Assembly (NCBI GenBank): GCA_000934665.2
Contig: JYFJ02001206.1
Location: 1-64,000 of the forward strand
DNA from: Catajapyx aquilonaris
Taxonomy: Eukaryota
Reading direction: 5' to 3'
DNA length: 64,000 nt
This document shows positions 11,522-64,000 of the stretch, piece after piece. The notes beneath the pieces are model-generated. The model had not been told where the DNA came from and made no database searches. It saw nothing but the letters and a program-made list of their open reading frames with translations. Numbering within the stretch: the stretch's first letter is position 1; each line of letters starts with the position of its first letter. Both the position numbers and the translations under genes were made by a program.

Positions 11522-14089
11522 ATGACCTGGTTGGCAAGTCGAAACCAGAAGAAGACTGAAGCTGTAGCAATATTGCTGAGTATCAAATGGAGGTTGGTTA
11601 TTATTATTATTATTATTTATTATTAATTATTAATTGAGTATTATTATAATAATTATAGGACAGTGCCCAAGATGACCACCTGGTGGTGGATAATATTTGG
11701 GACGATCATTTTCGGAATTTCGGCTTCCTTTTTCTTTTGGACATTAACCATTGAACCACATGAGTTGACCACTACGTCGTCACATACAGCTACGTCAGCA
11801 CCATTAAGTACAGATGTTGGGTTGCGACAGTTACATGCTACCGGTTGTTGGGATGTGAACTGTCCATCTGAAACTGGGGTTAAATGGTGCTCGTGCACCA
11901 TTATTTGCTGGGGTGTCCATGCCGACAAAGTAAGGAGTTACTTACCTGTCTTTTTAAGCGGCAACCAATTAGAGTTGTCGTGCTCTAATGTGAACATCAC
12001 ATTGCAGTTGACTGCCATTGATTTCGACTACTTCCTTCCTTCCTATTGGCTAGAAAATGTGGCTGGTTGCCGCAAAAAATTTTGTTCCCGGATAGTTCAA
12101 ATTATCCTAAAAAACAGCAGTTTTAATATAGTGAATAGAGCTGCGTTCAGCGGATTGAAACATCTGGATAGTTTAGAAATCAACGGAAATCTAAACCTTA
12201 CTATGATTCAGAACTTTGCATTCAGTGGCCTGAATCAGTTGACCACCTTGCTCTTGAAACATAATGACAATTTAAACGAGTTGCAAATGAATGCTTTTTA
12301 TGGTTTGAAAGAATTGAAGACTTTGCACATAGTCAGTAGTCATCTGATCAGATTGGACAAATACATATTTTTAAGACTCAATCAGTTGACGTCACTATGT
12401 CTATCTGATAACGGACAGTTGACAGTCCTGCCTGTGGGATTGTTTGATCCACTTAAAAATTTACAAACATTAGACCTCCAATCAACCAACGTATCTGCCG
12501 CAGTCTTTCAAACTGCATTTAGTGTTGCCAACCGTAATCTTCTGACATTAGACCTGGAAGTAAGTACTGCTGTTTGTCGTGTGAAGTGGTCTTTTCAAGG
12601 GTGCTTCAAATATTTCTAGGCATGCCCACTGGGACACATAAGACACGAGACGTTTTTGCGTGTCCCGAACGTTGTGCAGCTGTACATGCGACGGAGTCGT
12701 CTAGTGACAATCGATGATGGAACCTTTAGCAGTCTCTCTAACTTGGTAAAACTCGACATAGAGAACATGAATTTGACCAGCCTTTCGAGAGACTCTTTTT
12801 CAGTCAACATGGCTTCCAAGAATAGGTCGCTCATCATAGCCATACGTAAGAAGACATTTTGACAACGAATGCAGGTAATACATAATTTCCATCAATTTCA
12901 GACAACCCTTGGAACTGTTCCTGTGATTTGGAGTGGTTAAGACAGTACCTGGTGGAAATCCACAAAGGAAGCAACATCCCCAGATGCGCAGGACCAGGTG
13001 AGATGCAGGGCAGGCTTTTCAACGAAACTGGCAGTTTTTGCGCCGACTTGTCAACAACAACAACAACAACTTACAAAACCACAAGCAAACCTACAACTAT
13101 AATAATAATAATAATAATAATTTTATTCCCATTTCACCCCTAAGGGTACTTGAGGGAAGACTTCCCTTGATACACATATACATTCACTCATTAATGCTNC
13201 TCCACACACTGTCACTCCACACACTGTCACTCCACATACTGTCACTCCACATACTGTCACTCCACATACTGTCACTCCACATACTGTCACTCCACATACT
13301 GTCACATCACTACCGATAAGCACTTCAGTACTTCCGACCCAAAACCCGAACAACAAGCCCTGCTGCGTTGCGTTTGAAAAGGGAGGCAATTGTCCCCAGA
13401 CAATAATGGCCTCTAACAACAATTGCCAGACTGACAAAAACGGGTCAAGACTATCGTTGTGCTCAAATCACTCGACCATTACAATAGAACTGCCCAGTCA
13501 GCCTCGTCGAGTCATCCTCTTCTCAGATAACGGACATCATTGTTGGACCAACGTGACCAGCAGCATGGTCATCACCCAGCTGAAACCGGGTCAGAGTTAC
13601 ACAGTCTGCGCATCTCCTGAGTCCAACAAGGTGGCCTTTGTTCCAAACGATTGCAAAACAGAACGGACCAGTTTGCACGAGAGTGAACGCCTCTGGTTGA
13701 CTCAAGGGTCGAAAGGGCTGGTGTTCGGCCTGATTCCGGTCATTCTGTTGTCTGGGTTGGTCGTAGGTCTTCTGGTCGTGAGTGGGCTTATGAAGAAACG
13801 GAGAAAGAAGAGGATCAGTCATAAGAGAGTGACGCATTTGGGACTGCCCAGACACTCCATGGCATTTGACAGCTGCTCTGGAATATACGACGACGTCGCA
13901 CCTTACGTGCAAGGCAGACAGTCTATTTGGTCCAACGAAACAGTTTCGGTTCGATCAGAGTTCAGCAGCGATTACATCACTGTGGTGGACTCCATGCCCA
14001 TCCTGCAGGACATTCTCAGAAATATGACGCCGGAAAAGGACAAAGGACAGCCAGTTGTTAAAGTGAACCGCAGTATTTCGATATCGTAG
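11522..14089 (+). CDS. LRR receptor A: N-terminal anchor, LRRs, LRRCT, mucin stalk, FN3-like domain, TM, Tyr-motif tail; last exon interrupted at about 13098-13199 (possible pseudogene or assembly problem)
   Basis: Exons 11522-11592, 11659-12559, 12620-12845 and 12902-14089. NPWNCSCDLEWL LRRCT; LKPGQSYTVC FN3-like strand; TM LVFGLIPVILLSGLVVGLLVV; tail IYDDV...SDYITV. The frame is broken by an (ATA)n-containing insert and an N at 13199. Confidence 0.8.
13200..13305 (+). repeat. Coding 15-bp tandem repeat (PHTVT x7) in the mucin stalk
   Basis: CTCCACAYACTGTCA repeated 7 times; in frame with the downstream ORF at 13406. Confidence 0.85.
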
Positions 14090-14592
14090 AGATGACATTG
14101 TTCCAGTGATTTTTAGAGGACAATACTGAAGTTCACGTGAAGAAAGAAATTCATCCAAATCAGTGAATTTCCAATCAGACCACTATACTGTTAAAATAAT
14201 AAATTCTGAGCAAATGGCTGACTATAATTGTATTTGCAAGTTCAAGGACATACTGTACTTCAGAAAGCTAAAAGTGCATCAACTTCTGCGAATATCTATC
14301 TAAGCAAACCTGATATTTTGACGTAAGTGCCACTCCCTGATTACCTGATTTGCATCAGAGTCCATCATCTCTCAGGCTACTATCTCCCTAAGAATTCTAT
14401 ATGTGATCACAGCTTGTACAGAGAGAAACTCCGACAGAAGATAACAAGCCTTGTGACAGGATGAAAATTGGAAAATTAATCGCCGATATTACATGAGATT
14501 ATGACGTTGTAAAAGTTGTTGACAAAGGATAGGTCGCGAAAGTTCCTCATTTGCATCTGCACCAGGAGTGACTGTGGACATGGTGCTTGGGA

Positions 14593-16921
14593 ATGTCCAA
14601 GTCTCACTATATAAGGATGGACAAGAGGCAGGAAGTCGTGGCAATAGTGCTGAATCTAAAAGTGAGGTATATGTATAGTTATAATTATTTTCCTTAGAAG
14701 TTGTCTGTCTTAGCCTGTCATTCTAACCCATTTGTATGATTTCGTAATTAACAGGCGGTCATCATGTCAGTCACCACACTGCTGCTGGCTCATACTTGCT
14801 TCTGTAGCCTTGATAACAATGGCCGTGACTTTTGCGTGGATATTCTACATAAGCACTGAGACAAGGTCAGGTCACCATGAGGATGTTGACCTGCCTCTCA
14901 AGCGACCAGTCAGCATGGGCTCACCTTCCTTCACATGCGAACAGCCGGAATGCCAGACTGATCGAGTCAACTTCACTGATTCATGCTTGTGGAATATCCG
15001 TTGCTGTGGAATTGGTCACGAGAGAGTCATACATGACCTTAAAACTATACTAAGCGGAAATGACCCTAACGTGACTTCCACTGCGAAGGAATTCAATTGC
15101 ACCAGGCTAAGTTTTACGCTAGCCTTGGTGTCAATCACATTCAATTCCACTGTTCAGTCACACTGGTTGGACGGTTTGACCGTTTGTAACAACACCCTGT
15201 GCTTCACAGTTACTGACCTTACCCTGGACTACAGCTCATTTGTTGACATAGATTCGTATGCTTTCACTGGATTAAACGAATTGTTGAATTTGCGACTGCG
15301 ATACAACCCAAACTTTGTGGATGTTAAAGAATATGCATTTGCCGGATTGCGACATCTTTCGTATTTGACCATGTCGAACAATCCAAGACTGACACGTTTG
15401 GCTGCAAAAGTATTTGATCCGCTTCAAAATCTGACAACGCTAGATATTCAAGCCACCAATATCACCGTAGAGGGATTTGAAGCAGCGTTTAGCAACATCA
15501 ACCGCAATGTGTCTACAGTAACCTTAAACGTAAGTCAGCAAGTCACAAATGCAAAATGATATGAGTCACGTCATTGGTCAAAATTAATTCCGGACGTACT
15601 CTTTTACACTCTTCAAAATTCATTCATATAGGCCTAATCGTAACCATTCTACTGTAACCTTTACCATTTTCGATCGTAATGCGAGTTATTTCGCATTAAA
15701 AAACTAAGTAGACTACTATCTAATTGTTTCAGAAAACTCCTCTCCGACGAATCAAGAAAACTACATTTCGGAACACTCCTAACCTGCAGGAGTTGTATGT
15801 GCCGAGCTGTGACATTGCAGAAATAGAAGAAGGAGCGTTTGGCATGCTGCACCGTCCTGGTACTGTTGAGATAAGCAACAACTCTCTGACCAGTCTTTCT
15901 CCAAGAGTGTTTCCAAAATATTTAGACAGCACTGGTCTACTCATACTGGCCACAGGTACGTTATGTTGAGAATCACTTTTAAGCGTGCACACCACGTGAA
16001 GCCATGTGATTTTTGATTCCAGAAAACCCTTGGAACTGCATCTGCGATTTGGATTGGCTCAGAAGGTACATTGTTGACGTTAAGGGAACAAACTTTCCAA
16101 CATGCGCTGGACCAGGTGATTTGAAAAACGTGGCATTTAACGAGACGGTCAGTTTTTGCATCAACTTCACAAGCACATCACGTCCATGGACATCCACATC
16201 CACAGCATCTACAACCCTAAACCCCAACAAAGAAACCTGCTACACTCCTTTCACTTCAGAGGGCCGGTATCCCACTACCAATGGTGAAACTTGCTACTTA
16301 CCGACCCATCCCGACTCCAACTGGACCGCATGCTCTTCACTCACATCAGTCACCATCATAATGTCTCCAGGGTGTCAGCCACACCAGATCGTCTTGTTCG
16401 ACGACACTGGGTATCACTGCTGGGAGAACGTGAATCACAGCATGGTCATCCACACTCTGTCTTCTGGTCACACCTACACTGTCTGCGCGTCACCTGCACA
16501 CGGACACCTGACCTTCTCTCCAAGAGACTGCCAGACTCAGAAGACACACCTGGCTGACTCTGACAAGCCGTGGCTAACTCAGGGGTCGAAGGGACTGGTG
16601 TTTAGCCTCATCCCGGTCGTCCTGGCGGCAGGTTTGGTCACAGGGCTCTTGTCCGTCAAGGGACTCAGGTTGCAGAAGACGAGGCACTCCACAGCTCACA
16701 AACGGATGCGGAGCTCCAACGCGATCATTCCTGCAGACATTTCATCGGTAAAGTATGACGATGTCTTACCATGTGTGCCAAGAAGGCAGCCAAACTGGTC
16801 GACCGAAACTGTGTCAGTTCCTACAGATGTCAGCAGTGATTACATCACGATTGTGGACTCCACGCCCATACTGCAGGACATCCTCAGGAAAGTAACTGAT
16901 CAAAATTACTTGACATACTAG
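14593..16921 (+). CDS. LRR receptor B (paralog of A; very short stalk)
   Basis: Exons 14593-14666, 14755-15529, 15733-15955 and 16023-16921 splice in frame. Same intron positions and the same WLTQGSKGLVF-TM and KYDDV...SDYITI tail. The start codon could alternatively be 14617. Confidence 0.85.
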
Positions 16922-17898: not shown

Positions 17899-20800
17899 AT
17901 GACCTGGCTGGCCAGACATCATGGAAGGGAGGTCAAGGACAAGAGAAGGGTGGCGATTGAACTAGTTCTGGGCTTAAAATGGAGGTGAGTCATATGGACT
18001 AGTCAAGTTCTTGATTATAGAATTTACTGAATATTTCTTGAATGACAATTTTAATTTTCTGTCGAGAGTAAAACACGGATTTATACAAATAAAGTTGTTT
18101 ATCCTAATCTAGAGTTTGTGACTAGTTGATTCTTTCTGATTCAGAGATACCCCAGAGAAGCCTTGGGGATTGCGCCTGGCTGTTGCAACGTTGATGATGA
18201 TTCTGGTGTTGTTGATCTTAATGGCTCTGTATGGTGGCTTCGGATTAGATCTACACGATAGCACTAATGTAACAACTGTAATTACGACTACTGGTCAGGC
18301 TGTAGAATTTGTTGAGGGTTGTTACAAAGCAATATGCAAACCTCCAAAATTTAAATTCGGAGCAGATAAATGCGCATATACAATGAGTTGTTCTAAAATG
18401 AACAGTGATAAAATAGTTAGTGACGTGTGGTTTTATCTGAATGGTAATGACACCCAATTTAATGATGATGTTAGAAACCGCTGCATGGCCTCTAATATAT
18501 CACTTTCACTAGAACTTGATCATATTGTATTGCCCGATGTGATTCCTGCAAGTTGGCTGAACGGCGTAGAGGGTTGTGGTAAAAGGTTTTGTGCCATTGT
18601 CGAATACCTCACTCTTACTAGCAGTACGTTTCACACAATTGAGCCTTACGCATTCAGTAATTTGAGTATGTTGACCTTACTCCACGTAGAGGGCAATATT
18701 AAATTGTCTTTAGTGAAAGAGTATGCGTTCGTCGGATTGGAACAATTGATAGATTTGTCTCTGTCAAATAACCCCATTTTGACGCATTTAGATGAGAATG
18801 TTTTTGATAACCTCACATACTTAGACACATTGGATATTCGAGCCACTAACATTACTCTCGATGTTTTCAAAAGAACCATGAGTTCCCCAAGCCAGCTCAC
18901 GTCACTAACACTGAGCGTAAGTGATTCTTATGTCTGACACATTTAAGTTTGGAATGACTTCATCATTGTTGTCCTTTATAATCAAATCACTAGTACTACA
19001 ATGATTAATATCATCCAGCACTTTAAAAATCTGACTAGATTCATTTTAAAATGTGTAAATTTTCTAATAAGTTGTGATTTTCTCTCTCCAGCATTGTCCT
19101 TTGGAATACGTTCGGAATGATTCATTTTTAAATGTGCCTTTCATAAACTTGCTGTACATGGAAAATAGCCATATTACAGCAATAGAAGATGGAGCTTTGA
19201 CTGGTGTTGGTGTCCTGCAAGCAGTCGATCTGGCCCATAACAACCTGGTCACCCTTTCTAGAAATGTGTTTCCAATAATGACTGATGAACCCGGGCTTAT
19301 TATTGCCTTTGGTAATATGCCTAAAACCACTTTATCACATTTTTGTAATGCCTTTCTTACCCTTCCAAATTATTTCAGAAAACCCGTGGAATTGTACATG
19401 CGATTTAGAGTGGCTCAGAAATAGAATTGTGAAAAATATCGTCAAGGGCATGTCACTTCCCCGATGTTCAGCACCACATCATCTTTATGGCAAGGCCTTC
19501 AATGAGACAGGAAGTTTTTGCGACAATCATACAAGCACTCTTTCGCCATGGACGACTTCTGATTCTGACGTGACTACTAAGATACCCACTGAATATCCGA
19601 CAGATGAACCTACAGGCCCACCAACGAAAACAAGCCATGGAACGAGGCCATCTTACACTACATCTTGGACCACTAGTTCCACCACTAGCAGACCTTCCAG
19701 CCATATTCCGCTTCACACTACCACTTCTGCAACAACACTTTCGACTACTACAACTACAAGTCCAACTGCCACATATCCATCTACTACACAGCCATCTACC
19801 ACACAGCCATCCACAACAAGTAGTCCAACCACCCCACATCCATCACCAACGACCACGACACATTCATTTACAACAAATCCGACTCATCAAATCACATCTC
19901 CAGCTCCCACGAGCCATTCCACTACAGTGAGCTCAACACCTCTAAATTCACCCACCTCAAGTTCCACTTCTTCACACTCAAAGACAACAAGTCCCACCCC
20001 TTCTCCAACAACTGCTAGTCCCACAACGACAATTCCAACTACCACTTTTAAAACTACAACAATATCCTCTTCCACCAATTCTGATAGTACTAACCCTTCA
20101 ACAACAACTTCACAATCCACAACCTCATCAGGGTCCTCCTCCACAGCAGCACCCACAGATTCGCCTCACTCTACCAGCACTTTGACACCATTCACGTCCA
20201 CTCCAACCGACATGACAACCCACAGCCCGGTCGACAAACATTGTTGCAACGCCTACACAGGGCTAGGAAACTGCCCCTATCAAACAAGCAAAGACACCAG
20301 CAATAGCTGCCATCCAAACAAGTCCTCCAACACGACACTGTGTTACTTCCACTCCAACATCACAATATCATTTCTCAAGAGGAACATACCCCATCACATT
20401 ATGCTATACACCTACAATGGACAACGACACTGCTGGAAAAACGTGACCAATAACATTGTCATCCAGCAACTTCCTCCAGGCAAGAGCTTCACAGTTTGTG
20501 TGTCTCCTCAGTCCGGCCTCCTTACGTTCTCGCCCAATGATTGCACGATGAAAACAACAACTCTGAAACATAATGAAGAACCATGGCTGAGTCAAGGCAA
20601 CAAGGGACTAGTGTTTGGTCTCATTCCGGCGGTACTTGTGGTAGGGCTGATATCTGGAATTTTGATCGTCAGAGGACTAGGGAAGAGACCAAGAACGCGC
20701 CACATACGATCTGGAAAGCTGGCAATCTTCAGGAGAACCACCATATACCCAGAGGACAACGCGTCTGTGATATACGACGACGTATTGCCCTTCTTCCCTT

Positions 20801-20979
20801 CCAGACCATCAGTTTCGTCCAACGAAACCGTATCTGTTCGGTCAGAGGTCAGCAGTGATTACATTACAGTCCTGGATGCCGGGCCCATAGTACAGGACCT
20901 CTTGAAGAGCCTAGCATCACATGAATATTCTGGACACAAGAGTCCGGTGAAAATGACCCGTAGCATTTCGATATCATAA
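17899..20979 (+). CDS. LRR receptor C (paralog of A/B; ~240-aa Ser/Thr/Pro mucin stalk)
   Basis: Exons 17899-17984, 18145-18916, 19092-19311 and 19379-20979 splice in frame. First exon MTW...KWR matches receptor A. Tail VIYDDV...SDYITV...RSISIS. Confidence 0.88.
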
Positions 20980-23219: not shown

Positions 23220-24927
23220 ATGTTGCTACCCATTGTTTGTCTCCTTTTGCTCGTTACAACTCTAACAACAGGTAAGTGCAATCAATTGTAAGTGTGTTCA
23301 AAAACGTGTCCTGGCAGTATTGTCCGAAACATTTTTGGACACCACTTACCGGTTGAATTTTACAGGTGAATTACCTTGCATAAACAGCAGCACATGTGAT
23401 GACCTGCACTTGTTTCTGGCCAGAAGTTTTAGTATTTTGCATATGAATGGCTGCGGAAAGGTGATATCAGGTTCTCTGACTAGAAACGTCAATGCTGCTT
23501 CTCTGGACTATGACAAAGACAGCCTTACCTTATATTGGGCTCAATCCAGCTCTTTAGCCACGCCTCAGATATGCAGGTGAGTCTGAAGCAAATGTATTGT
23601 TGCCCATTGTTATACAAGTATTGTTTGTACCAGAAAAAATCTGAGCCGGAGAGGAAGGAACCCAACCTGCATCATACGAGAGGAAGACCAGACAATACCA
23701 GTCCAGATAGCCATCGATTGGGCTCATGACCTCCTCTATTGGATGACCTCTGACCCGTCCGGACATAACGACATACGGGTGTCCACGAAGGACGGAGACC
23801 ACATCACAACTGTCGTATCGGGACTGACAAACGCGAAGGGAATGACCCTTGACCCCATCGGAGGCTGGATCTTCTGGAGCTCACAGGGCCACGTATACAG
23901 GGCAGGTGGAGATGGAAGCCAGGCCAGAATAATCCAGACCTTCCTGACCCGAGGCATGATCTCCACCGACACCCTGACCTTCGACCTCCAGACGCGCAGG
24001 CTCCTCTGGGCAGAGGAAGGCATCAACGTCTTTTTCTCATGCCTACCAGACGGAACAGGATTGGTCAGACATGTGGCATCAGGTTCAACCATACCTTCCA
24101 TTGTTTCCATGAACAGCTATGGAGGAACCGTGTACTATTTGTCACAAAATAACCTGTACAGGTTGTGCACAAGTACTGGTCAGACTGAGGAAATCGCTGA
24201 ATTGTCAGAGGTATGTTGGACATCTGTTTTTATCATCACACTTAGCCATTTATTATTTCCAGATCGCAACTTCTCTCCGTGTTTACGACAAGAAGAGAAT
24301 ACGCAAACCGGACATGACGTCATGCCACAGCGATTGCGACTATTTGTGTCTTCCCCACCCCCAAGATGGCGCTTCTTACTCTATATGCCGTTGCCCAAAT
24401 GACGCGCAAAATGGTACAAGCTGTGAATATGGTAGGTACAACATAGCTATAGAAACAGCGACAATTCTAACACATGGCCCAGTTGCAGCTACCGAAGTCG
24501 CAAAAATCAGTGCACCGGAACTTCCTGTAGCAGCAATCGCAGGCATTGTCTTGGGTGTGCTTCTCATTGTGTTTGTCACATCAGTGGTATGTACTGATAT
24601 CCATTATGCAGGAGCATCTCACTAACCGGTACTTTCTTGCAGATTGTAGCTTGCATTGTTCGTAGAAGGAGGATTGATGAACGTCAAGAACCGAAAGTAC
24701 CACTGTTCACAGTGGGGTACCACCGTGATCCTCCTCGCTCCAGTGAAGTCCCACCATTGCCAGAACGTAATCAAGTCAACATACCCAACACGCAACAGTG
24801 TCAAGTGCAGGAAGAAGCGGACGACGACCACATCTACATGGAGATGGAGATGGACAAGTGTCCACAGCAGTGTGAGGAGGACCCATACTTGCGTCCCAGG
24901 AAGAAAGAAAATCCTTACGTTGTTTGA
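23220..24927 (+). CDS. Type-I receptor P1: signal peptide, LDLR class B (YWTD) beta-propeller, EGF, TM, Tyr/Pro-rich tail (cueball/LRP-like module)
   Basis: Exons 23220-23271, 23366-23576, 23634-24210, about 24263-24431, about 24483-24586 and 24643-24927. AIDWAHDLLYW and LDPIGGWIFWS repeats; EGF CDYLCLP...CRCP...C; TM IAGIVLGVLLIVFVTSVIVACIV; tail HIYMEM, PPLPER, NPYVV. Confidence 0.85.
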
Positions 24928-51500: not shown

Positions 51501-51926
51501 GGCCCATACCTGCGAGACAATAATGTCGTTATATAACGACCACGGACAACGACGCTCCTGTGAACCCATCTCTACCTGAACATAGCCTGGAAACGTCCGT
51601 CGCTGTACACAAAATACTGCTTCTCGGCATAGTAATCAAAAGTAGTAATGTAACGAGCACTCAGCAGAGGACCAACTTCTTTACCACATCCTGTCACCTG
51701 AGTCACCATCGTCTTTGTCCCGACCAGCAACGACAATTGGGATATCTCACTATCCTCACACTGACCATCAGCGGACAATGCCGGACACTCATTACCTGAA
51801 ACAGAAGATGACTGCTGCAACCAAATTCCAACAACTATGACAAAAGAAGACCGTGTGAACCTCACCTTTTGTCCACAAAGCCACATACACAAGCTGTAAC
51901 AACAGAAGAACGTACAGGTTGGCCAT
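48503..51926 (-). CDS. Chimeric receptor X2: same propeller-EGF-mucin-CTLD-CTLD-TM-tail architecture
   Basis: 12 exons in frame from MANLYVLLLLQLVYVALWTK (51926-51866). Fused exon about 50663-50449 reads TTELFITSEPTTLVRNYSS. Tail ends QYTNYCPQQEV. Confidence 0.85.
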
Positions 51927-52690: not shown

Positions 52691-54968
52691 TCACCTGCGT
52701 CTCCCCAGACTGGTGGCGTCGTGATACATATACTTTTTAGAGGAACCAGAAGACTGCTGATAGGCCATGTTTCCGTAAACAGGCTCTTCCTCCTGTTGGG
52801 GACAGTAGTTGGCGTACTGCCCACAGACATCTCCAACAGACTGGTCCATGGAGATGGCCTCGTATACCTCGGCATAGTCGCCACTGACTATATCCGGAGA
52901 CCTGGATCCTCCAGGAGGTGCCACCAGGTTGGCCCTGCTGCTAGCATTCTCCTTGGTTAGACCTGGAAGAACAGCCACACCACCAACTGGAACATGGTTC
53001 TCATAGGTCACTGAAGCTTCTTCCTGATGGTCCTGACGACAACGCAGGTCGTCGTTGCTTCTGTTGGGTTGTTGTTGTTTGCCAATTTTGGTTTGACTGT
53101 ATCGGACCTCGCCCTTGTTGCGGCACTTCATGGTGTAGAAGTCCTCCACCGGGAGTCTCTCTCGGCGACGGCGGTGGCAGCACCACACTGTGATTCCAAT
53201 CTGAAGTTGAGGACACCACGTGTCGTTGTTGTGAGAAAATAATGGCTCATGACAACGACTGTAAAATTGGGTTCATGCTACCAACCACAAGAATGGCACG
53301 TTGGAGGTAGGAGCATTGTGTCAGAAGAGGTGCTTACCATCAGTAAGAGACAGACCACTGCTAGTGCCGTGATCAACGATATGTTGATGATGAAGCAAGG
53401 CCCAGACAAGAACGACGTATCTTGGTCTGCTAAACACAAATTGTTCAGTTTATGTAGGTAAGTGACACTTAACTAGATGACAAACCATGGTGGTGGTGAT
53501 CGTATGTCTCCTCATCGGTGTCCGTGTCAGAATCACCAGTACTTTCAGTAGTGGTTTCCACAGTTGAAACATTGGTGGTTGTAGCCTCAATAACTATCTT
53601 CTCGCATATGAATGGCCTTGAGTGAGAGCAAGGGTAGTCGTCAAATTGTCCTACAGACAACTGAACACAGTCTTCCTTTTGGCTCAGACCATTCGGCTCA
53701 CCTCTAGACCACCCCCTGTTTAATATCAAAAATTAATATCAAATTTTACCCTGCCCCACCTGTTCTAACATTAATGCCTACTGCCTACCCTAAGGAGTGA
53801 TGGTAAAAGAAGCCTAAGCAAGTACATACCGATATTAAAATGTAAACCGTTAGTAAGAAGCGATGCTGATACTTACAAAATGGTTTCATTCAGAAAATCC
53901 TGGTTAATCCACTTCCATTTGGTGGATTCGTGTCGTTCGAGTCCAACCCACCATTCTTGGCAATGGTCTGTGTTGATTGATATTACCTCTCGGAGCATAT
54001 CCTGTGAGTGAAATGCAGTGGTTTGTCATAACACTTGGTACTGTAATACTTGTCCAAAATAAAGTTTTGGCCAAACGTATCTTGTTGCTATGCGGTTGTA
54101 TAGCGCCAAGAGAGGTTTGCCCAAAATGGTGACATCCAGTGTTATACCGCTTCATTCTTGGAAGTGACAGTGGCCAGTGACGAACCTTCAGCCAGGCAGG
54201 TTTTGTACGCTTCATACCACGACTGTAGCCTAGTTGACGGCTTGTACAATACTGATCCATTAGTTCCTCCTGAATTCAATTACACCATGAGAATAGCATA
54301 TGGATTACAAAAATGGGGACTTACGTGATTGGCACATGTAGCATAGAACTGTCTGACACCTCCTGTCGTTGAGGCTTTGAGTAGACCGGAAAACCTCGCC
54401 ACAATCTTCATGGTAATTTCCATTGTTGGGTTGGCCCTCCCTCCAGTTGCTGAAGTATTATATTCGACTGTTGTACTATAAATGTCATGAAAATTGTCAG
54501 AGTTTATGACTCACGCTATACTATCATCCAGCTTCCTTCCGCTTGTCCATATCCACTGGCCCTCTACTTCAGGATCGGTCAATCCAATAGCCCATCCCAT
54601 AGTACCATTTGTTCTGGCAATCACTCTGATTATCCAGGACTGACAGGAATATTCATCAAACATCAAAATTTATAATTTAAATATTCAATTAAAATTTACT
54701 ACCTTCTCTTCTTCTGAATCAATTTCAAGCAGGTCACCTCCCCTTGACCTGCAATATTCCCTGGCCGATACCCACGTCATTTGATTCTCGTTGAATATGT
54801 ACCTTCCTGAGGAACCATGTCGTACCAGCCATTGTTCAGCATTCAACCTGTTTGCTGTTAACGTACCTGCAAACACCACATTTAGTCATACACTTTAGAA
54901 TTACAAGTGAATGTACAGTACATACCGATACTGAAGTATGCAAGTATGAGAACAGCCCAGCCTTTCAT
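52691..54968 (-). CDS. C-type lectin receptor L4: SP, 2 CTLDs (QPN, EPN), TM, long multi-Tyr tail; donor of the 3' half of X1/X2
   Basis: Own signal exon MKGWAVLILAYFSIG (54968-54926) and exon 2 at 54866-54703. Tail YSQT, YENH, YAEVYEAI, YANY, VYGNM, YMYHD. Confidence 0.87.
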
Positions 54969-55222: not shown

Positions 55223-57125
55223 TTAGAATCTTCTCCTGTCCAAAGTACTAGCGTCCTGATAGTAATAGACTTCTCCCAGATTGGGCTCGTATCCTACGTT
55301 GACCCTGAGAAGAGACAACCTCCCATCCTCCTGTTGTTGGTGGATGTTAGGCACCATGTAGCCTCCAGAAGTACTATTGCTGTATATGGAGCTGGTCGGT
55401 ACGTCGTAGTTTCCACTGACGACAAAGATACGTTCAGTCGACGACCCAGGTGTAGGTGTCCTGTGGCTCACACTCTGCTGGAAGGTTGCCACACTCGGTG
55501 GACGGACATTTGGGGTCGGAGGTTCCTCCAACTGTTGGTCCTGGTCGTTGATTTTGGTCAGAGAGCTAGTGTAGCTGAATTCGTCGTCTGCGTTACCGTA
55601 GGCGTAGAGCAGATTGTTGTCGAAGTAGTCCTCCGACGAACGCTGCTCTCGGTGCCGGTTGCCGTACCACTTTATGTCCAAAACCTGGAGAGCATTGCCC
55701 CTCATTGTATTGTTTACACGCTCCAGGAGGTAAAGAGACTGTAACAAACCTTTGTCACGATGCAAACGATGGTCAGAAGTGCGCTCGATATGATGATGAT
55801 AACGGTAGAATCGCCGATATGGTGATCTGCAACAGCTGAAATTATTGTAGATGAAGCACTCTTATTGTTAGAGTCCTGATATCTGTAAAAAATACAATAT
55901 GTCACTGTATGAAACATTCCCGACCTTCAGATTCTGCAAGTGTCCTCTTACAAATATAAGCGCCCCTAAAATGACAACCGGAGTCAATTACTTTCCCTTC
56001 ACGATCCAACCATGCGCAGTCTTCTCCCAACTTTCCACCAGGTTCTCTGGGTGCCCAAGTCCTGGTAATGAACAAAGGTAAGCAATAATGACGTATGCAA
56101 TGTAATGGCTTTCTGAGAAAGTGAATACTTGCAACAAGGAAGTGTCCAGCTCATGATTTATCCACCTCCATTTGTCACCCATCCTTTCCAGTCCTATCCA
56201 CCATGAGTTACAAAAGCTAGTGTCTTGTGATATCATATGTTGAAACAAGCCCTGCGCAAAGTGGATCCCTCGTTTCAACATAATACTCGTACAGTCAGGT
56301 CACTGAATACACCATTAATATTACCAATTCCAGCTGAGACGTGACCGTAGCCAGTGTCCAACCTTGTTCCTGGCATGCCTTCACCGAGTCGTACCAAGTC
56401 TTTCCTAGCGAATATTTCTCCTGTGAAGCGACGAAATTATTTTCTACAAAATAAACAGAAAACATTGAGGATCTCTCTATAAGACACACAGAGATACTGC
56501 ATACCTGTTTTACAAACAAAACACTTTCGACTATTACACGAAGAGTCCAATATCCTTGAATCTCTCCTTCGATACTCGACGCAATCTACAGGTCTGCCGT
56601 TGTCAGGCTGTCCGAACACCCATTGGCTGTAAAATTAGGAAACATCATCGTAACAAGGTGCCAACGATGCACCTGGTACTACCTTACAGTACTGTCGAAT
56701 CATAGGGTGTGCCATCTTCCCACACCCACCAGCCTTCTTCTTCCCAGTCACTTAGTCCTGTGGCCCAATACACATTATAACTTGCTATAGAACCTTTGAT
56801 AAATTCCTGTTGGGCCAAAATGTCAAGTCAAAAGGTCTTCAACTACATAATCTTTCAAAAATATCTTACCAGTTCTTCTGTCGAACGTATGTCTGTCAGG
56901 TGTCCGTTCTCTTTTTGACAGGCACGTCTAGCACTTCTTCGTGACACAGACACATTGCAAAACAGGTACGAATCGGAAGAATTGGGACGTCTGATCCAAT
57001 TGGCACAAGGTTGAAGGGCATCAAAAGTATCTGAATAGATTGCCAAAACAAGTACTAACGATTTGATCAAAATAATCAGGTACGTTACCTAGTACGAGTA
57101 TGAGCCAAACAATAAGCAGCTTCAT
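55223..57125 (-). CDS. C-type lectin receptor L5: SP, 2 CTLDs (QPD, EPG), TM, tail with YDVP/YMVP/YEPN/YYYQD
   Basis: MKLLIVWLILVLG signal exon; in-frame CTLD exons; tandem paralog of L6, including upstream sequence. Confidence 0.82.
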
Positions 57126-57644: not shown

Positions 57645-59549
57645 TTAGAATCTTCTTCTGTCCAAACCACTAGCGTCTTGATAGTAATAGACTTCTCCTA
57701 GGTTTGGCTCATAACCAACGTTGACCCTGAGAGGAGAGTACCTCTCGTCCTCCTCCTGCTGGTGGTGGAAGTTGGGCACCACGTAGCCTCCCGCCGTACT
57801 GTTGCTGTAGATGGAGCTGGCTGGTACATCGTAGTCTCCACTGACTACAGCGAAGTTGCGTTCAGTCGACAACCCAGGGTTGGGTGCAGGAGGCCTGTGG
57901 GTCACACCTCGCTGGAAGGTGGCCACGCTCGGTGGACGAGGAGGGACCGTCGGCGGTTCCTCCGATTGTTGGGCCTCGCAACAATGGTCCCTGTCGCGGA
58001 TTCGGGTCCTGGAGCTGGTGTAGCTGAACTCGCCGTCTGCGTTACCGTAGGCGTAGCGAAGCTTGCTGGTGAAGTAGTCCTCCGACGAACGCTGCTCTCT
58101 GCGACGATGGCGGTACCACGTTATGGCCAGAACCTGGGGAGTACAGTCGACAATTGTTTACACGATCGAGGAGGTGAAGCGACTGGAACAAACCGTTGTC
58201 ACGATGCACAGTAAGGTCAGTAGTGTACTCAATATTATGACGACGATAGTGCAATAGTCAGGATGGTAATCTGCCACAGCTGAAAAATAGTTGATACAAT
58301 TAACTCTAATGTCGCCTTGTCAATTATGTTCTGGCATACTGAACCTGCATGTGTCCGTTTGCAAATGTACGGAGTGTCGTAACGACAACCGTAGTCGCCT
58401 ACCCTCCCATCAGTATTCAAAGATGCACAATCTTCTCTGTAGTTTCCACTAGGCTGTCCAGATCCCCACTGCCTGGTAATCAACATATGTAAGCAATTCA
58501 ACCGTACACAACATAATGTCCTTCTGAGAAAATGAATACTTGCAACAAAAAAGGGTCCAGCTCATCTAGATTCAACCACCTCCATTTGTCAGCCACTGTC
58601 CTCTCCAATCCTATCCACCATCTGTCACATGAGCTGTTGTCCTGCGATACCGTCTGTCGAAACAAACTCTGCACATATGTTTAGTGTTAACCCTTTGTTT
58701 CTACATATACAGATCACTAGAAACTTCACCAATATTACCAAGTCCTGCTGAGACGTGATCGTGGCCAGTGTCCAACCTCGATTTTGACATACCTTGGCCG
58801 AGTCATGCCAATTCTTCGCTTCTGAATTTATCTCCCGATCTTGTGAAGCGACAAAAAATGGCAGCCCATTAATTTCTACAAAATAAATAAAATACAGTGG
58901 ATTATTTCCATGACAGTGTGTGGGATGCAGCATACCTGTTCTACAAACAAAACACTTTCGACCAAAACATGAAAAGTCATTTAATCTTGAATCGCTTTTT
59001 CGATATTCAACGCAATCTATAGGCCTTCCGTTGTTCGGTTGTGAGTTATCCCATTGGCTGAAAAAAGGGAATGTCAGTATAACAGGGTATGGACAATGTA
59101 TCCGTTACTAACTTACAGTACTGTCGAATTAAAGGGTGTACCATCTTCCCACAACCATCGACCTTCTTCTTCCCAGTCACTCAGTCCAATTGCCCAGAAG
59201 CTCACATTATAATTTGATATACAACCTCTGATAAATCTCTATGGAGGAATATGAATGTTAATTTCAAGTAAGAACGTCTTCAACTGTATCTTACCAGTTC
59301 TTCACTAGAACGTATGTCTGTCAAGTATCCTTGTTCCTTTTGGCAATGACGTCTAGCACTTCCTATAGACACAGACACATTGCAAAACAGGTACGAATAT
59401 GAAGAATTGGGACGTCTGATCCAATTGGCACAAGGTTGGGCATCGAAAGTATCTGATTAAAAAATATCGCCATTACAAAATATAGCCAGATTGATCAAAG
59501 TAGTTACGTTACCTAGTAGGAGTATTAGTCCAACAATAAGCAGTTTCAT
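57645..59549 (-). CDS. C-type lectin receptor L6 (paralog of L5; QPN, QPS)
   Basis: MKLLIVGLILLG signal exon; same exon layout; tail GDYDVP...GGYVVP...EVYYYQDASGLDRRRF. Confidence 0.82.
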
Positions 59550-59993: not shown

Positions 59994-62007
59994 TCAAACA
60001 TTTCCCACAGGTTGGTAAATATTGTCATCCGATATCCGATTTTCAGGCTGGTAAGAAGTATGACCAGTTCGACGTTCCACAGGTACCACATCGTCATACT
60101 CGTTTTCGTCAGGTAGAGGCCTCGGGTCACGACGAGGCTGCTGTTGCTGGACAGGACGAGGAGGAGGCCCATACTCATTAGGTTGGATATGACTAGTAGG
60201 ATTGTTGCGATTTCGAACTGATCTATTTACAGCTTCAGTGGCTTCAGTCTTAGGAACAGGCGGAGGCATTTGATTAGGAACAGGCGGGGGCATTTGATTC
60301 AAGAAATTGTCTTCCACAGGCTTCCGATTTCGGGTCTTCTCTCGGTACCACATGTAGGACATACCCTGTTGAAAGTTATTTACATGATTATCGCCAAAAT
60401 TAGCCAAATGACTTATCGAGCATATGTGCCCAGTCAACTGATAGGACACCAATGATATAGATAATTACAATCAGTGCAGCCAGTGTGACGGTGAAAAAGA
60501 CTGCCAGGACGATAACGGCGTCATTGTTGCGGTCACTTCCTTGTGGAGGACACACTGGAGATGCAACAAGTAATTAGCACTAATGGTGTTGAAAGAGATG
60601 ATGCCACAGCAGCCTACCTGTTGATGTGGTAACACTGCTTGTTGTTGTGGTCGTCAAATTCGTTGTACTGGTCGGCACAGTAGTGACCGGAACTTTCGTC
60701 GTTGTTTCCGTTGTAATGGTGGTAGGGAGGTCATTAACCGTACAAATAAACGAGCCGAATTCACCACATGCAACAGTAGCCAAATATCTTCCGTTAAATT
60801 TGACACACATGCTGTCGTTGGCTGGAGGATTAATCCAATCTCTGTGTAGCACAAATAGTTGTGTCACATGTAATATCTACTAATAATAATGAGCACAACT
60901 AACATGATTGAAGAGTTGAATAAACTTCCGTCCATCCAGTGCCAATTTCCGTCCACAAAGGTCAGTCCAACCCACCACCAGGGGCCGAATGACTTGAACT
61001 CATAGCTTTCCAGAGTTTGGTTAATCGTGTCCTGTAGGTCATATTGGCATCAATTTAACACTGATCAACTATTCCAAGACAAATTAGTGGGTTGCCGGCA
61101 TATTAGAAAGGAGAGGTTGTAATCGACCAGGAAGTGATTGAGCGCCCTGTAATCACCGAGGTGATTATTACAGGGCAGGCAACTTATGATAACTGCTACA
61201 CAATGGGTTTCACAATGATATAGACAAAACAAAGTTCATAGGCATCATGTGACCAAAAAATCATTTAGAAAACACCAGGGTCCAGTTGCCAAAAGTTGGC
61301 AAAAGTAAAACTGGTTAGTGTGGTAAATGCAGCAGGGAGGGGAGCGACATCCGACGGCAAAGCGGTAAAGTGCAGAAGTAAGTGAGTCGCCACCAGGTCG
61401 CCACCGGCCAGGAGGCGCCGCCCTGAGAGCCGAGCGGCGAAAATGGGAATTCCGTGGACCCGGCTTTTTTGAGGTTTCTGGGGGTATTTTGCATTTGACA
61501 AAGTCCCTCCGCACTTTTTCCAAAAAGAAAAGTGGTTTGCAAATATAGAAAACGCGGGCTAAATTTTGAGACCCCTCCCAATAATGTAGGCCGTACGGTG
61601 CGGGAGGAGTTTCCACGATAGTCGTAGATTAACAATTGAAAGTGTAAATATCGATAGGCACTGTCTAAGAACATGGCTCCAGCTATTGTTCAGGACGACT
61701 TACTGACGAATCCCCAGTAGATGTGACTCACCTTCTCTTCTTCAGTCTTAATCAGCACCAAGTCGCCCCTTGTCAAGCAGTATCTTCTCGCCTCACCCCA
61801 CTGAAGCATTGTTGTGCAAAATTCATAGCTGTGGTTTGCTCCAGGGATCTCACTGCATGAATATGCCTCAGGAAGAGTGTCCCCTGAAACAAAGCCTCAT
61901 GTGGATTTGCAACAATCAAGTACATTCCACTTACCTGTTGCTATGAAGGTCCATAACAGCCCTGCAACCAGGAGATAAGTAGTTTTTGAGCAATAGTGAG
62001 GCAGCAT
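59994..62007 (-). CDS. Single-CTLD receptor L7: SP, CTLD, mucin, TM, Pro-rich tail with EYDDV and NIYQPV
   Basis: Signal exon 62007-61935 (MLPHYCSK...FIATG); WGEARRYC, WWWVGL, FICTV; TM VIVLAVFFTVTLAALI|GMSYMWY. Confidence 0.8.
61060..61690. mobile_element. Probable transposon-derived insertion enlarging an L7 intron
   Basis: ~700-bp intron with a GC-rich core where homologous introns are ~60-200 bp. No clean TIR or TSD identified. Confidence 0.35.
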
Positions 62008-62598
62008 TAGAGCATATGTGCGTCGAACCCGAGTTGGTAGAAATGTGAGCTTTAATGTGGTTCGTTATCTTGTCAGCTCTCTCACTTTTTCCTGGTAGTG
62101 ATAATGATTGGAGCAAGATAATTGCGACATTAGATTTCTGCAGGTAGTGATATACCTATGATTTCCTTTACATTGTAGAGAATGAACGTCCTTCAATTCT
62201 ATGGCTCCTCATGCTTAAAAGTGACCTTACTCTAAGCAGTCTAAGGTGTGCCAACTACTACAAAATGGTTTACCTGTTATCATTTCCATCTAAGGAATGT
62301 GGATTAGGCTGTAATCATTCGGTAGAAGGTTACTGATTACGTTTCATAAAAATATAATCTGCATTGTTGTCGGTTACTGTCTTGCCACAATTTCCTAGTA
62401 AGTGAATTATAAATAATTTTTATGTATGTTTGTACAGTGTTTTCTGGAGCTGATTGTTCATTTTTTTGACATGCAGTACCGTTATAATTATGCATATTAA
62501 CACATTTGTTTAGAGGAAATATGGTCATATGGGGGTTGATGTTACATTATGAGAATAATAACTTCCTGAAAAAACGATACAAAAGATTCATTTTTTCC

Positions 62599-64000
62599 TT
62601 ACATGATTGATTTTCTTGGGGGCAAAGGAGGAGTTCGTTGAGTGTTATGCGTCGCTGCAGAACTTGCATCAGCATAAATTTCATCATCATTTGCATTTTT
62701 ATGTACATTTCCTCCATCATTATAAATGGGTTCTTCAGTGACGTTTCCTGCATCATCATAAGTACTCTCATCATTGTTTGCATGAACCTGGACCGGTGTG
62801 GTACTTTCTGCATCATCGTAAACAGGATTATGATTCTGGCCATTTGTAGCATCATCATAAATAGGATGTTGATTATGGCCATTTGTAGCATCATCATAAA
62901 TAGGATTTTGATCCTGGTCATTCTCCACGACATTTGTAGCGTCGTCGTAAACAGCAGAATTTTCGCAGTGCCCATGTCGAGAATTATGTGTCACATTCAT
63001 ATCTTCATATATAGGTGCCTTAATATTTCCAGCCTCTTCATACACTTTGTTGTGATGTCTGGAAGTGGGTGACACATTTCCTGCATCAACATAAGTTTGT
63101 GGTCTGTTGTTCTGATGTGAAAAATCACGTGATATATTTCCAGCATCGATATATGTGCTGTTGTCCTGGATACTTGTTGCTGGAGATTGCTGATGACTTC
63201 TGGGTGGTAAATGCCGATTGTCTTCCTGGCTATGGATTTGAACTATTGCTGATGACCCAAGACCACTCGGGCTGGCTTGATGGGAATTGCTTACCTGATC
63301 CGGGCTATAAAAATTAGTAGACCTTACAGAATTCATTAGAGACTTGCCCAGTCCTGGCCTTCTTTTATGCCACAAAAAGGTCATAACCTGCAAAATGGAT
63401 AATCACTGTATATTGCGTAAGTAGTACTTAATTATAGAAAATAAGACCTTTGTGTGCAGGGTTTCTAAAAATATGCAATTACCAGTAATCCTATCAGGGT
63501 GATTGCAAACAAAGTGCCCAAAGCGATAGCAGCACCCCTACTTTTATCTCCTTGTACAATGACCACCGTTGCTTCTGTAAAATAATTAATATGCATATAA
63601 TTTATTAAAATGCTACTATATGTAATCAAATTATATTAATTCAATGACATACTTGTAGTACTTTGGAGATGTGTCGTCCTTGTCGATTCTGTAGTATTTG
63701 CATATGTTGTGGTTGTCTCTTTTGTGTGGTTGGAAGTGTGGTTGTAATATTCATTGTTGTAGTTACAGCTGTGGCAGCTGTTGTTGCATTATGTGGCTCT
63801 GATGTGACTTTTGACGTTGATTTCGTGGTATGACCAGTTGCCTTGATGGTCAAGTTCTGAATAATTTTTCCTGCATGGACGTCACGAACTTTGCAGATGA
63901 CCGAGTGGGTAAAATCACAGGGAAAAACATTCATTCCTTCATGTGTAATTGCCACGCACCCGGTGGTTTTTTGCAACTCCACATCACTTCTGTAACAAAA
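62599..64000 (-). CDS. C-type lectin receptor L8 (5' part outside window): CTLD end, mucin, TM, ~260-aa tail with an array of Y-x-[DE] motifs
   Basis: GCVAI...FPCDFTHSVICKV; TM exon about 63574-63483 (GAAIALGTLFAITLIGLL); last exon 63387-62599. Confidence 0.85.

Follow-up and report, generated by a model that had tools for sequence, protein, structure and literature searches.

A candidate tandem array of non-catalytic LRR, YWTD-EGF, and C-type lectin receptor genes with two embedded prophenoloxidase genes in Catajapyx aquilonaris

Analysis of a 64,000-nt stretch of the Catajapyx aquilonaris genome (contig JYFJ02001206.1, positions 1 to 64,000 of the forward strand; hereafter, the window) identified, between 11.6 and 64 kb, 3 LRR-FN3 genes, 2 YWTD-EGF genes, 8 C-type lectin genes, 2 fusion genes that join YWTD-EGF and lectin modules, and 2 prophenoloxidase (PPO) genes, which amounts to 17 genes (15 receptors and 2 PPOs) in 52.5 kb. 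We judge the chances to be somewhat better than even that the locus is a genuine tandem array of non-catalytic type I receptors, specific to its lineage, in which two functional-looking PPO genes are embedded. The locus is described by the following features: (i) its receptors have four ectodomain designs, namely LRR-LRRCT-mucin-FN3, YWTD-EGF-mucin, tandem C-type lectin-like domain (CTLD), and YWTD-EGF/CTLD fusions, (ii) recent local duplications together with exon shuffling and gene conversion have enlarged the array, and its tails have been truncated, frameshifted, or amplified internally, and (iii) the receptor genes are adjacent to the PPO genes, which is a fact of the map, and any regulatory or functional tie to melanisation is putative.

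The gene models were obtained from stop-to-stop open reading frames (ORFs) of both strands that were hand-picked and chained at GT..AG sites using learned splice weights. The window is eukaryotic sequence with a GC content of 38-52% along its length, and its coding sequences are split by short introns (51 predicted, median about 63 nt) with the consensus AAG/GTAAGT at donors and TTTCAG/G at acceptors. A Pfam scan of 148 of the 150 ORFs of at least 90 amino acids (aa), the two excluded ORFs lying over an N at 13199, recovered LRR_8 both at 11.6-19.4 kb and in another gene, at 5.9-9.3 kb, Hemocyanin_N, _M, and _C at 28.1-30.5 and 33.5-35.6 kb, pieces of Lectin_C at 39.8-59.1 kb, and marginal YWTD matches; kinase, TIR, death, and Ig domains were not found in these ORFs. 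Both the models and the scan agree with an earlier reading made from the letters of this DNA (hereafter, the sequence-only reading), which had counted exactly 3 LRR, 2 YWTD-EGF, 8 lectin, and 2 hybrid receptors around 2 PPOs and had described the receptors as devoid of kinase and TIR domains. In all 15 receptor models, a single C-terminal hydrophobic segment precedes basic residues, after which comes the tail; from the signal-like N-terminal segments and this C-terminal transmembrane (TM) segment we infer that the receptors would be type I membrane proteins. The frame is open end to end in 16 of the 17 models (Table 1). The only exception is CTLa, whose model ends in unspliced intron read-through.

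Table 1. Predicted genes of the array and the repeat block between the PPO genes
Feature	Position	Strand	Predicted product or content	Basis
LRR1	11672..14089	+	Signal/anchor, Cys-rich N-terminus, LRRs, LRRCT, PHTVT-repeat stalk, FN3-like, TM, 103-aa tail (IYDDVAP, SSDYITVVD)	LRR_8 2.7e-17, model
LRR2	14819..16921	+	Architecture as LRR1, 89-aa tail (KYDDVLP, SSDYITIVD)	LRR_8 5e-18, model
LRR3	18194..20979	+	Architecture as LRR1, ~300-aa Ser/Thr/Pro-rich stalk, 103-aa tail (IYDDVLP, SSDYITVLD, PFFPSR)	LRR_8, ORF reading, model
YWTD1	23266..24927	+	YWTD propeller, EGF-like, TM, 89-aa tail (HIYMEM, PPLPER, DPYLRP)	ORF reading, model, X5 joint
YWTD2	25044..27142	-	Signal peptide, YWTD propeller, EGF-like, poly-Thr mucin, TM, 106-aa tail	ORF reading, model
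PPO-A	28094..30726	+	10-exon arthropod-type prophenoloxidase, open frame	Hemocyanin_N/M/C, tblastn with beetle phenoloxidase, model
High-copy repeat block	31005..33005		Between PPO-A and PPO-B	DNA word depth
PPO-B	33373..36003	+	10-exon tandem copy of PPO-A, open frame after splicing of short in-frame introns	Pfam, translation and intron check
CTLa	36959..38649	+	Signal peptide, 2 CTLDs, stalk, TM, short tail	ORF reading, Lectin_C thirds, X5 spliced contig
CTLb	39402..41106	+	2 CTLDs, TM, 90-aa tail ending HYYEDVV	ORF reading, Lectin_C, four X5 joints
CTLc	41951..43765	-	2 CTLDs (EPN in the second), TM, 103-aa tail with 8 Tyr	ORF reading, Lectin_C, model
Fusion gene A	44316..47787	-	YWTD-EGF-mucin-CTLD-CTLD-TM-tail	ORF reading, PDB matches of YWTD exon, model
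Fusion gene B	48503..51926	-	Architecture as fusion gene A	ORF reading, model, 4.15-4.3 kb repeat unit
CTLd	52691..54885	-	CTLD-CTLD-TM, 168-aa tail (SGDYAEVYEAI, YMYHDATSLGRRR)	ORF reading, Lectin_C, model
CTLe	55223..57088	-	2 CTLDs, TM, 152-aa tail with 12 Tyr, ending YYYQDASTLDRRRF	ORF reading, Lectin_C, model
CTLf	57645..59549	-	CTLe paralogue, 161-aa tail with 13 Tyr	ORF reading, Lectin_C 6.9e-08, model
CTLg	59994..61896	-	One CTLD-like domain, Thr-rich stalk, TM, 138-aa tail (PPPVP x2, ENEYDDVVP, NIYQPV)	ORF reading, in-window HMMs
CTLh (cut by window end)	62599..64000	-	End of CTLD-like domain, Thr-rich stalk, TM, 260-aa tail (12 Tyr, 8 in Y-x-D-A; PPLPPRK)	ORF reading

A part of the window (23001-43000) was compared with sequencing runs X1 and X2 (DNA; from four DNA runs of one sample) and with a small run, X5. 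No run marked as RNA was listed for 26001-36000. Contigs of X5 contain GT..AG joints that are missing from X1 and X2, in YWTD1 (24585>24642), CTLa (37354>37422), and CTLb (40185>40262, 40385>40453, 40624>40682, and 40752>40812). All of them fall at or within a few bases of predicted introns, save one CTLb donor that is about 20 nt off. X5 is therefore considered RNA-derived, since its joints coincide with predicted introns and are absent from the DNA runs. A further X5 contig, which is unspliced, covers the last exon and the 3' end of PPO-A (30486-30857). Thus, YWTD1, CTLa, CTLb, and PPO-A are transcribed in X5 (tissue not given). PPO-B, CTLc, and most of YWTD2 have no X5 cover within the compared part, which is not evidence on their expression, and X5 contig depth cannot rank the genes.

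On the minus strand, a unit of 4.15-4.3 kb is present three times, as fusion gene A, fusion gene B, and CTLd, the last copy having no YWTD-EGF half. In the fusion genes, the YWTD-EGF-mucin half has about 92% nucleotide identity to YWTD2 (25-27 kb), whose TM segment and tail differ, and the CTLD-CTLD-TM-tail half is 86-98% identical to CTLd (52.7-54.9 kb) in conserved blocks. CTLe and CTLf represent a duplicated pair of 2.4 kb, and the duplication units overall have 75-98% identity. Synonymous divergence (dS) among the fusion genes, CTLd, and YWTD2 is about 0.07-0.32, versus 0.48 for the PPO pair, and it changes along the genes. For fusion genes A and B, CTLD1 gives 0.066 and the YWTD region 0.16; for fusion gene B and CTLd, CTLD1 gives 0.32 and the tail 0.13; for fusion gene B and YWTD2, the N-terminus gives 0.07 and the YWTD region 0.24. 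These low and mosaic values fit recent duplication with exon shuffling and gene conversion. The proposal of the sequence-only reading that recognition and signalling modules have been recombined is borne out by this mosaic and by the match of the two fusion-gene halves to YWTD2 and CTLd.

Tails of the array have been altered in several ways. The tail of fusion gene A (44316-44672) is frameshifted after ...ENASS relative to fusion gene B and CTLd, with loss of the DYAEVYEAI block, and that of fusion gene B (48503-48916) stops about 30 codons short of the YMYHDATSLGRRR end of CTLd. Inside the CTLh tail, a 39-nt x 2.9 tandem repeat (62810-62922) multiplies a 13-residue unit holding IYDDAT, which would represent internal amplification of a candidate docking site. 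The ratio of nonsynonymous to synonymous divergence (dN/dS) is below 1 in all globular domains (0.26-0.31 in CTLD1). Between CTLe and CTLf it equals 0.24 in the tail and 0.41 in the ectodomain, and in the LRR genes dN is 0.35-0.41 in the tails and 0.58-0.60 in the ectodomains. A comparison of ectodomains with tails had been proposed as a check of the locus: the tails are more constrained in the CTLe/CTLf pair and have lower dN in the LRR genes, and the fusion-gene tails, considered below, depart from this pattern.

An artefactual linkage, or an array made up mostly of pseudogenes from a collapsed or expanded repeat, appears highly improbable to us. Unitigs from two DNA runs span 23050-25791, 27136-28317, and 35613-42412 and show 0-3 differences; the second of these ties the 5' end of YWTD2 to PPO-A, and the third ties the 3' end of PPO-B through CTLa and CTLb into CTLc, with the caveat that the DNA runs behind the unitigs may be the assembly's own data. 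Open frames in nearly all models, dN/dS below 1 in globular domains, and three spliced and expressed receptors also argue against decay. On the other side are the frameshift and the early stop in the fusion-gene tails, a DNA depth of 40-53 over 25.7-27.7 kb versus 25-30 elsewhere (paralogues share words there), and the only N of the window, at 13199. This N starts a 15-nt x 7.1 tandem repeat (13199-13305) that encodes the PHTVT units of the LRR1 stalk; how exons 3 and 4 of LRR1 are joined beside it is uncertain, and the repeat may be collapsed. The sequence-only reading had named misassembly as a possible refutation of the linkage; the unitigs join YWTD2 to PPO-A and PPO-B to CTLc, whereas the repeat at 31-33 kb between the PPO genes is not spanned by any listed unitig.

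All three LRR genes have an LRR block, an LRRCT in which the NPWNC.CDL.WL motif is readable, an FN3-like domain, a single TM segment, and a cytoplasmic tail, i.e., a FLRT-type layout. In a full HMMER search of 1.84 billion representatives, the last exon of LRR2 had 18 matches at E<=0.001, whereas a word-based homologue search among longer proteins found no match for it. Eight of the 18 relatives are named, with six from wasps, bees, or sawflies, one from a rove beetle, and one, a fish GP1b-alpha, that aligns to the exon through LRRCT alone; the other ten are unnamed sequences from Logan, ENA, and JGI. The insect relatives (450-760 aa, 20-23% identity) have LRRs, LRRCT, a Thr-rich stalk, a Cys-bearing domain ending in ...Y-T-(I/V)-C, a W-L-x-x-G-x-K juxtamembrane motif, and a TM segment. 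In NCBI they are called 'FLRT-like' or 'uncharacterized', and the FLRT label, being an automatic name, does not establish orthology to vertebrate FLRT. The tail block SSDYIT(V/I)(V/L)D of LRR1-3 aligns to S-Y-(V/I)-S-x-(V/I)-E in the wasp, bee, and beetle homologues, and SISIS of the window tails aligns to their IPS(L/V)S ending. The motifs W-L-x-x-G-x-K and S-x-Y-(I/V)-(S/T) are common to LRR1-3 and the insect FLRT-like family (e.g., XP_017890707.1, XP_043523347.1, and XP_065173501.1). The tails of the wasp and beetle proteins differ in having PPPLPP and GSKR blocks, whereas the window tails are without these blocks and carry YDDV.

The FN3-like domain was assigned by structure comparison. 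An AlphaFold model of the last exon of LRR2, built from 17 aligned sequences (mean predicted local distance difference test score, pLDDT, 65), contains a confident beta-sandwich at residues 94-178 (block pLDDT 75-92), after which come a TM helix and a tail modelled mostly at low confidence. Among 48,161 solved chains, the best 50 entries for this sandwich have Z of 7.1-8.9, where values near or under 8 can reflect a common arrangement, and the entries examined are fibronectin type III or cytokine-receptor FN3-like domains, with root-mean-square deviations mostly of 2.2-3.5 Å over 73-82 residues and of 5.3 Å over about 90 residues in two nuclear magnetic resonance entries. By these comparisons, LRR1-3 are LRR-FN3-TM proteins with the layout of FLRT. 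The fast evolution that the sequence-only reading named for the vertebrate complexes does not extend to the LRR family, which is old and slowly evolving and has relatives in wasps and a beetle. LRR1-3 extend this uncharacterised insect-wide LRR-FN3 receptor family, in which a tail motif is conserved over large distances. In several of the homologues (P0048, P0050, and P0053), about 45 residues precede the N-terminal hydrophobic segment, whereas LRR1 and LRR3 begin directly with that segment; the arrangement in the homologues suggests a signal anchor with both protein ends in the cytoplasm, rather than a cleaved signal peptide.

The YWTD exon matched solved chains of LRP4 (6e-18), LRP6 (1.2e-13), and nidogen (8e-08), as well as LRP2 and LDLR, in a phmmer search. 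A word-based search among longer proteins gave no match for this exon, and the absence of relatives cannot be claimed at word level. For the EGF exon, matches to EGF_LRP2, FXa_inhibition, and cEGF were all below their cut-offs; one EGF-like module follows each YWTD propeller, and the Pfam scan found no EGF repeat arrays. The ORF reading did not find a 5' exon of YWTD1. The order of a YWTD propeller of the six-blade type, an EGF-like module, an O-glycosylated stalk, a TM segment, and a short tail is shared with the LDL-receptor family. The window genes differ from that family by the lack of class A (LA) repeats, as Ldl_recept_a had no match in the Pfam scan, and by the lack of NPxY in the tails of YWTD1, YWTD2, and the fusion genes.

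Each lectin domain of the array is divided over three exons, which correspond to successive thirds of the Lectin_C profile (2-32, 26-66, and 63-107). Lectin_C was detected at E<=0.05 in 20 of the 37 short lectin-gene exons and above the Pfam cut-off in 6 of the 37, and four longer ORFs are also above this cut-off. Hidden Markov models (HMMs) built within the window and run on 877 ORFs of at least 40 aa retrieve exons on which they had not been trained, from fusion genes A and B, CTLb, CTLe, and CTLf. CTLg has no Pfam match and is recognized by the in-window HMMs in two of its three exons (1.7e-12 for exon 1 and 1.3e-07 for exon 2; not exon 3), and the truncated CTLh has a weak match (E 0.0025 among the 877 ORFs). 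Two carbohydrate recognition domains (CRDs) and a TM segment are present in CTLa-f and in both fusion genes, and the EPN, QPD, and QPN motif variants occur among the lectin domains. The real tail of CTLa is short because its exon ends at 38366 according to the X5 contig; the tail exon probably lies near 38533-38649, which gives a true tail of about 38 aa. A look-up of the CTLe tail exon in the ESM Atlas returned no usable match.

To our knowledge, hardly any membrane lectins whose tails are long and of signalling type have been described from insects and related animals, and insect C-type lectins are mostly described as soluble; immulectins are soluble proteins. The insect classes, as given in PMC10341621, are CTL-S, immulectins with at least two CRDs, and CTL-X, in which a CRD is combined with modules such as EGF. 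The window genes resemble immulectins in having two CRDs and differ by their TM segments and tails of about 40-260 aa, and the YWTD-EGF-CTLD-CTLD combination was not found among the CTL-X modules listed in that source. Four features set the locus apart from the insect lectins and from the Drosophila Nimrod cluster: (i) membrane-anchored, long-tailed, tandem-CRD lectins, (ii) the YWTD-EGF-CTLD-CTLD fusion, (iii) three kinds of ectodomain, and (iv) the embedded PPO genes.

The family resemblances listed above bear on a different reading, which in our opinion is less probable than not: the products would serve endocytosis, scavenging, or adhesion in epithelia, neurons, or other non-immune tissue, their Tyr motifs would mainly be sorting signals of the YxxPhi and acidic-cluster kinds, and the PPO genes would be chance neighbours. 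YWTD-EGF-mucin-TM is the membrane-proximal design of endocytic receptors of the LDL-receptor type, to which the LRP4, LRP6, and LRP2 matches belong, and LRR-FN3-TM is the layout of the FLRT molecules for which the insect homologues are named. The vertebrate type I receptors with multiple CTLDs (the mannose receptor family) are endocytic, which we count in favour of the same reading. It also gains from the description of insect CTL-X lectins as mainly developmental (PMC10341621). The missing LA repeats and the lack of NPxY in both YWTD genes count against it.

The modelled tails are 89-260 aa long and enriched in Tyr, which makes up 97 of 1845 residues (5.3%) in the 15 modelled tails versus 183 of 6068 (3.0%) in the ectodomains. 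Motif counts were compared with 2000 within-tail, composition-preserving shuffles for 14 of the 15 tails (Table 2); the CTLa tail was left out because, as modelled, it is intron read-through.

Table 2. Motif counts in 14 receptor tails and in shuffled tails
Motif	Observed	Shuffled mean	P or shuffles reaching the count
YxDA	11	0.3	0 of 2000 shuffles
Y[DE][DE]	12	1.5	0 of 2000 shuffles
YDxV	4	0.5	P=0.0005
PxxPx[RK]	6	1.5	P=0.0045
YxN	12	5.9	P=0.01
YxxM	4	1.5	P=0.05
NPxY	2	0.5	P=0.09
SxYxxV	2	0.7	P=0.15
YxxPhi	21, in 12/14 tails	17.4	P=0.21
ITIM-like [SIVL]xYxx[IVL]	5, in 3/14 tails	3.6 ± 1.8	P=0.30
YxxP	8	7.4	P=0.47

All motif instances named in the sequence-only reading exist; YDxV, PxxPxR/K, and YxN go beyond the shuffles, whereas the motifs resembling immunoreceptor tyrosine-based inhibitory motifs (ITIMs) and YxxP do not. 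YDxV is similar to the SH2 sites through which nephrin and Tir bind Nck/Dock; PxxPxR/K belongs to the class II SH3 ligands, and AP-2 sorting relies on YxxPhi with acidic clusters. The motif Y-x-D-A-(S/T/G) recurs in CTLd (YHDATS), in CTLe and CTLf (YQDAS), and in CTLh, three tail types that are otherwise dissimilar, and CTLe and CTLf have 12 of 13 Tyr columns in common. The following mechanism may be proposed for the array. The ectodomains would bind glycans (via EPN, QPD, and QPN in the lectin domains) or protein ligands, and the enzyme-free tails would serve as docking and sorting platforms. A cytoplasmic Tyr kinase would phosphorylate the tails, and the acidic-Tyr motifs (YDDV, YxDA, and YYYQDA) together with PxxPxR/K would recruit SH2/SH3 adaptors; instead of or beside this recruitment, the tails may drive AP-2 endocytosis. 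For the endocytic or adhesion alternative, the wide spread of YxxPhi over the tails is favourable, but these sites are not above the shuffles, the most enriched motif is YxDA rather than YxxPhi, and the enrichment of PxxPxR/K points to SH3 adaptors.

Several results weigh against a functional array with docking tails. First, the gene models are based on ORF reading and splice-site scoring, with RNA support from the X5 joints in three genes, and some internal exons are probably mis-joined in CTLe, CTLf, and at exons 3/4 of LRR1. Second, tail disorder has been seen in a structure model for LRR2 only, where pLDDT is below 50 at residues 234-284. Third, ITIM-like, YxxP, and YxxPhi counts are at chance in the shuffles, and both paralogy and internal repeats inflate the enriched counts: of the four YDxV, three come from LRR paralogues, and eight of the eleven YxDA lie in one tail, that of CTLh, with its 39-nt tandem repeat. 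Fourth, Tyr columns are kept no better than other tail columns in any of seven paralogue pairs (Fisher P 0.08-0.79). Tail-tyrosine conservation, which the sequence-only reading had put forward as a check, is thus seen in the LRR tail block common to distant insects and is not seen as a preference for Tyr columns within the array. Finally, the fusion-gene tails are near neutrality (dN/dS 0.89 for fusion gene B versus CTLd, and 1.19 for B versus the frameshifted A), and therefore part of the array may be decaying.

The two PPO genes have Hemocyanin_N, _M, and _C in order on successive exons, and tblastn with a beetle phenoloxidase covers its residues 1-658 at both loci. Both contain HHWHWH...YMHQQ followed by HNMGH (PPO-A) or HNLLH (PPO-B)...(F/Y)R(W/L)HKF; these His motifs are those of the copper A and B ligands and are intact. 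The CGCGWPQH motif is also kept in both genes, and neither model has a hydrophobic leader or signal peptide. The exon at 34576-35166 has 38 protein matches, of which 33 are named, and all 33 are insect phenoloxidases (35-51% identity) from beetles, wasps and bees, aphids and other bugs, and mosquitoes. These relatives, like those of the LRR genes in wasps, bees, sawflies, and a beetle, fit the arthropod setting assumed by the sequence-only reading. PPO-A and PPO-B are spaced by 5.2-5.3 kb and have 83-95% nucleotide and 88% protein identity; both genes are under purifying selection, since dN/dS of the pair is 0.16. In-frame stops of PPO-B were considered as nonsense codons and rejected, as they fall inside in-frame GT..AG introns of about 55-60 nt.

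In domain order, copper-site His, CGCGWPQH, absence of a signal peptide, and identity over one exon, the two genes are similar to arthropod PPOs. They differ in that the best relative is at 51% and the Arg-Phe site is not at its expected N-terminal place. No R-F of the insect-type activation site is present within the first 100 residues of either protein, and the exon 1/2 junction of both genes (28207-28275 and 33489-33555, + strand) reads DYI/DDRW. The activation cleavage site, if any, would be unusual for an insect-like PPO. Crustacean PPO enzymes have been reported to use another Arg activation site, and such a site may serve here. The repeat block between the genes has a DNA word depth of up to ~1e5 versus 25-30 elsewhere. 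Its positions 31094-31714 are palindromic, (TTA)n and (AAT)n arrays occupy 32159-32267 and 32682-32792, and a loose end of the block resembles a tRNA-derived SINE (short interspersed element) box.

The sequence-only reading had proposed a co-regulated haemocyte receptor complex, analogous to the natural killer and leukocyte receptor complexes. In a fuller form of this proposal, the receptors would be expressed with PPO in blood cells under GATA and RUNX factors, phosphotyrosine tails would tune melanisation, phagocytosis, or encapsulation, and truncated or frameshifted tails would be paired activating and inhibitory forms. We consider this reading unlikely. In its favour, the PPO genes sit between the arrays, and the unitigs back the YWTD2-PPO-A and PPO-B-CTLa links; recent duplicates, domain swaps, tail truncation, and frameshift form a birth-and-death-like pattern, and the CTLe/CTLf ectodomains evolve faster than the tails. 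Insect lectins, immulectins among them, are linked to melanisation, encapsulation, and prophenoloxidase activation (PMC10341621). On the other hand, promoters do not reveal co-regulation. In 16 upstream regions of 500 nt (several 5' ends are approximate, and the upstream region of CTLh lies outside the window), 33 WGATAR sites were observed versus 25.6 ± 4.9 in composition-matched shuffles (P=0.086) and 16.0 ± 4.2 in random windows, and 7 RACCRCA sites versus 6.6 ± 2.4 in random windows (P=0.48) and 3.0 in shuffles (P=0.03). The GATA and RUNX sites taken as a sign of co-regulation are therefore present, and are explained by composition (GATA) or window density (RUNX). The ancient LRR family with the layout of FLRT adhesion molecules also speaks against a haemocyte complex, and a single locus cannot separate PPO linkage from coincidence.

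The comparison with vertebrate complexes holds in part. Natural killer complex receptors are type II proteins with one lectin-like domain and either an N-terminal ITIM or a pairing with adaptors carrying immunoreceptor tyrosine-based activation motifs. The window shares with that complex the tandem arrangement of lectin-domain receptors without catalytic domains and the variation of tails between close paralogues (background in PMC1193534 and PMC11484026). It differs in that its lectin receptors are type I by sequence, mostly have two CTLDs and long C-terminal tails, and carry ITIM-like motifs at chance frequency. The leukocyte receptor complex has Ig ectodomains, whereas the 148 window ORFs gave no Ig-family Pfam match. 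The analogy thus stands for tandem non-catalytic receptors and fails for membrane orientation and Ig domains. The closest arthropod comparison is the Drosophila Nimrod family, 'a cluster of 10 genes' on chromosome II (NimA, NimB1-5, and NimC1-4), some members of which are phagocytosis receptors and in which NimC1, like Eater, is haemocyte-specific (PMC6852320). As in the window, related receptor genes are clustered in tandem, and the Nimrod members are single-pass and secreted proteins (same source); the ectodomains differ, being NIM/EGF repeats there and LRR-FN3, YWTD-EGF, and CTLD here, and the window has PPO genes inside the block. Since this insect haemocyte-receptor cluster is already in print, which is a point for the haemocyte reading, a claim that the arthropod locus has no precedent is too strong. 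For a PPO-linked mixed array of membrane LRR, YWTD, and lectin receptors, no description was found in the open-access literature, judged mostly from listings.

A bolder version would make the locus an arthropod counterpart of the vertebrate natural killer and leukocyte receptor complexes, with a birth-and-death haemocyte array that swaps LRR-FN3, YWTD-EGF, and tandem CTLD ectodomains onto phosphotyrosine/SH3 docking tails and gates melanisation beside PPO, with tail truncation, frameshift, and amplification of the 39-nt YDDA unit producing activating, inhibitory, and decoy forms. This is speculative and quite unlikely; if true, Y-x-D-A-(S/T/G) would be a previously unrecognised docking motif. 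As far as we know, the cell-surface receptors that join recognition to melanisation or encapsulation are poorly defined. Provided that the array encodes haemocyte receptors, it would offer a compact natural experiment in the shuffling of recognition and tail modules, together with the candidate docking motifs YDDV, YxDA, and PxxPxR/K. If it does not, the locus still clearly illustrates how quickly exon shuffling can recombine YWTD, EGF, and lectin modules.

Several other elements were observed in the window. A further LRR gene lies upstream of the array at 5899-9345 (+ strand). Its LRR_8 exons (1.1e-31 and 4.9e-14) occur together with LRRNT-like Cys and LRRCT-like motifs, and its C-terminus is hydrophobic, has no tail, and resembles a glycosylphosphatidylinositol-anchor signal; the gene is not a paralogue of LRR1-3. 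A tRNA candidate at 372-439 (- strand) was rejected: its Rfam score of 29.8 bits is close to the gathering score (29), ARAGORN did not call it, and it may be a tRNA-derived repeat. Between LRR3 and YWTD1, a 420-nt element (21937-22358) is 77% identical to its own reverse complement and resembles a foldback or miniature inverted-repeat transposable element, and similar self-complementary stretches are present at 3627-3760 and 4493-4654.

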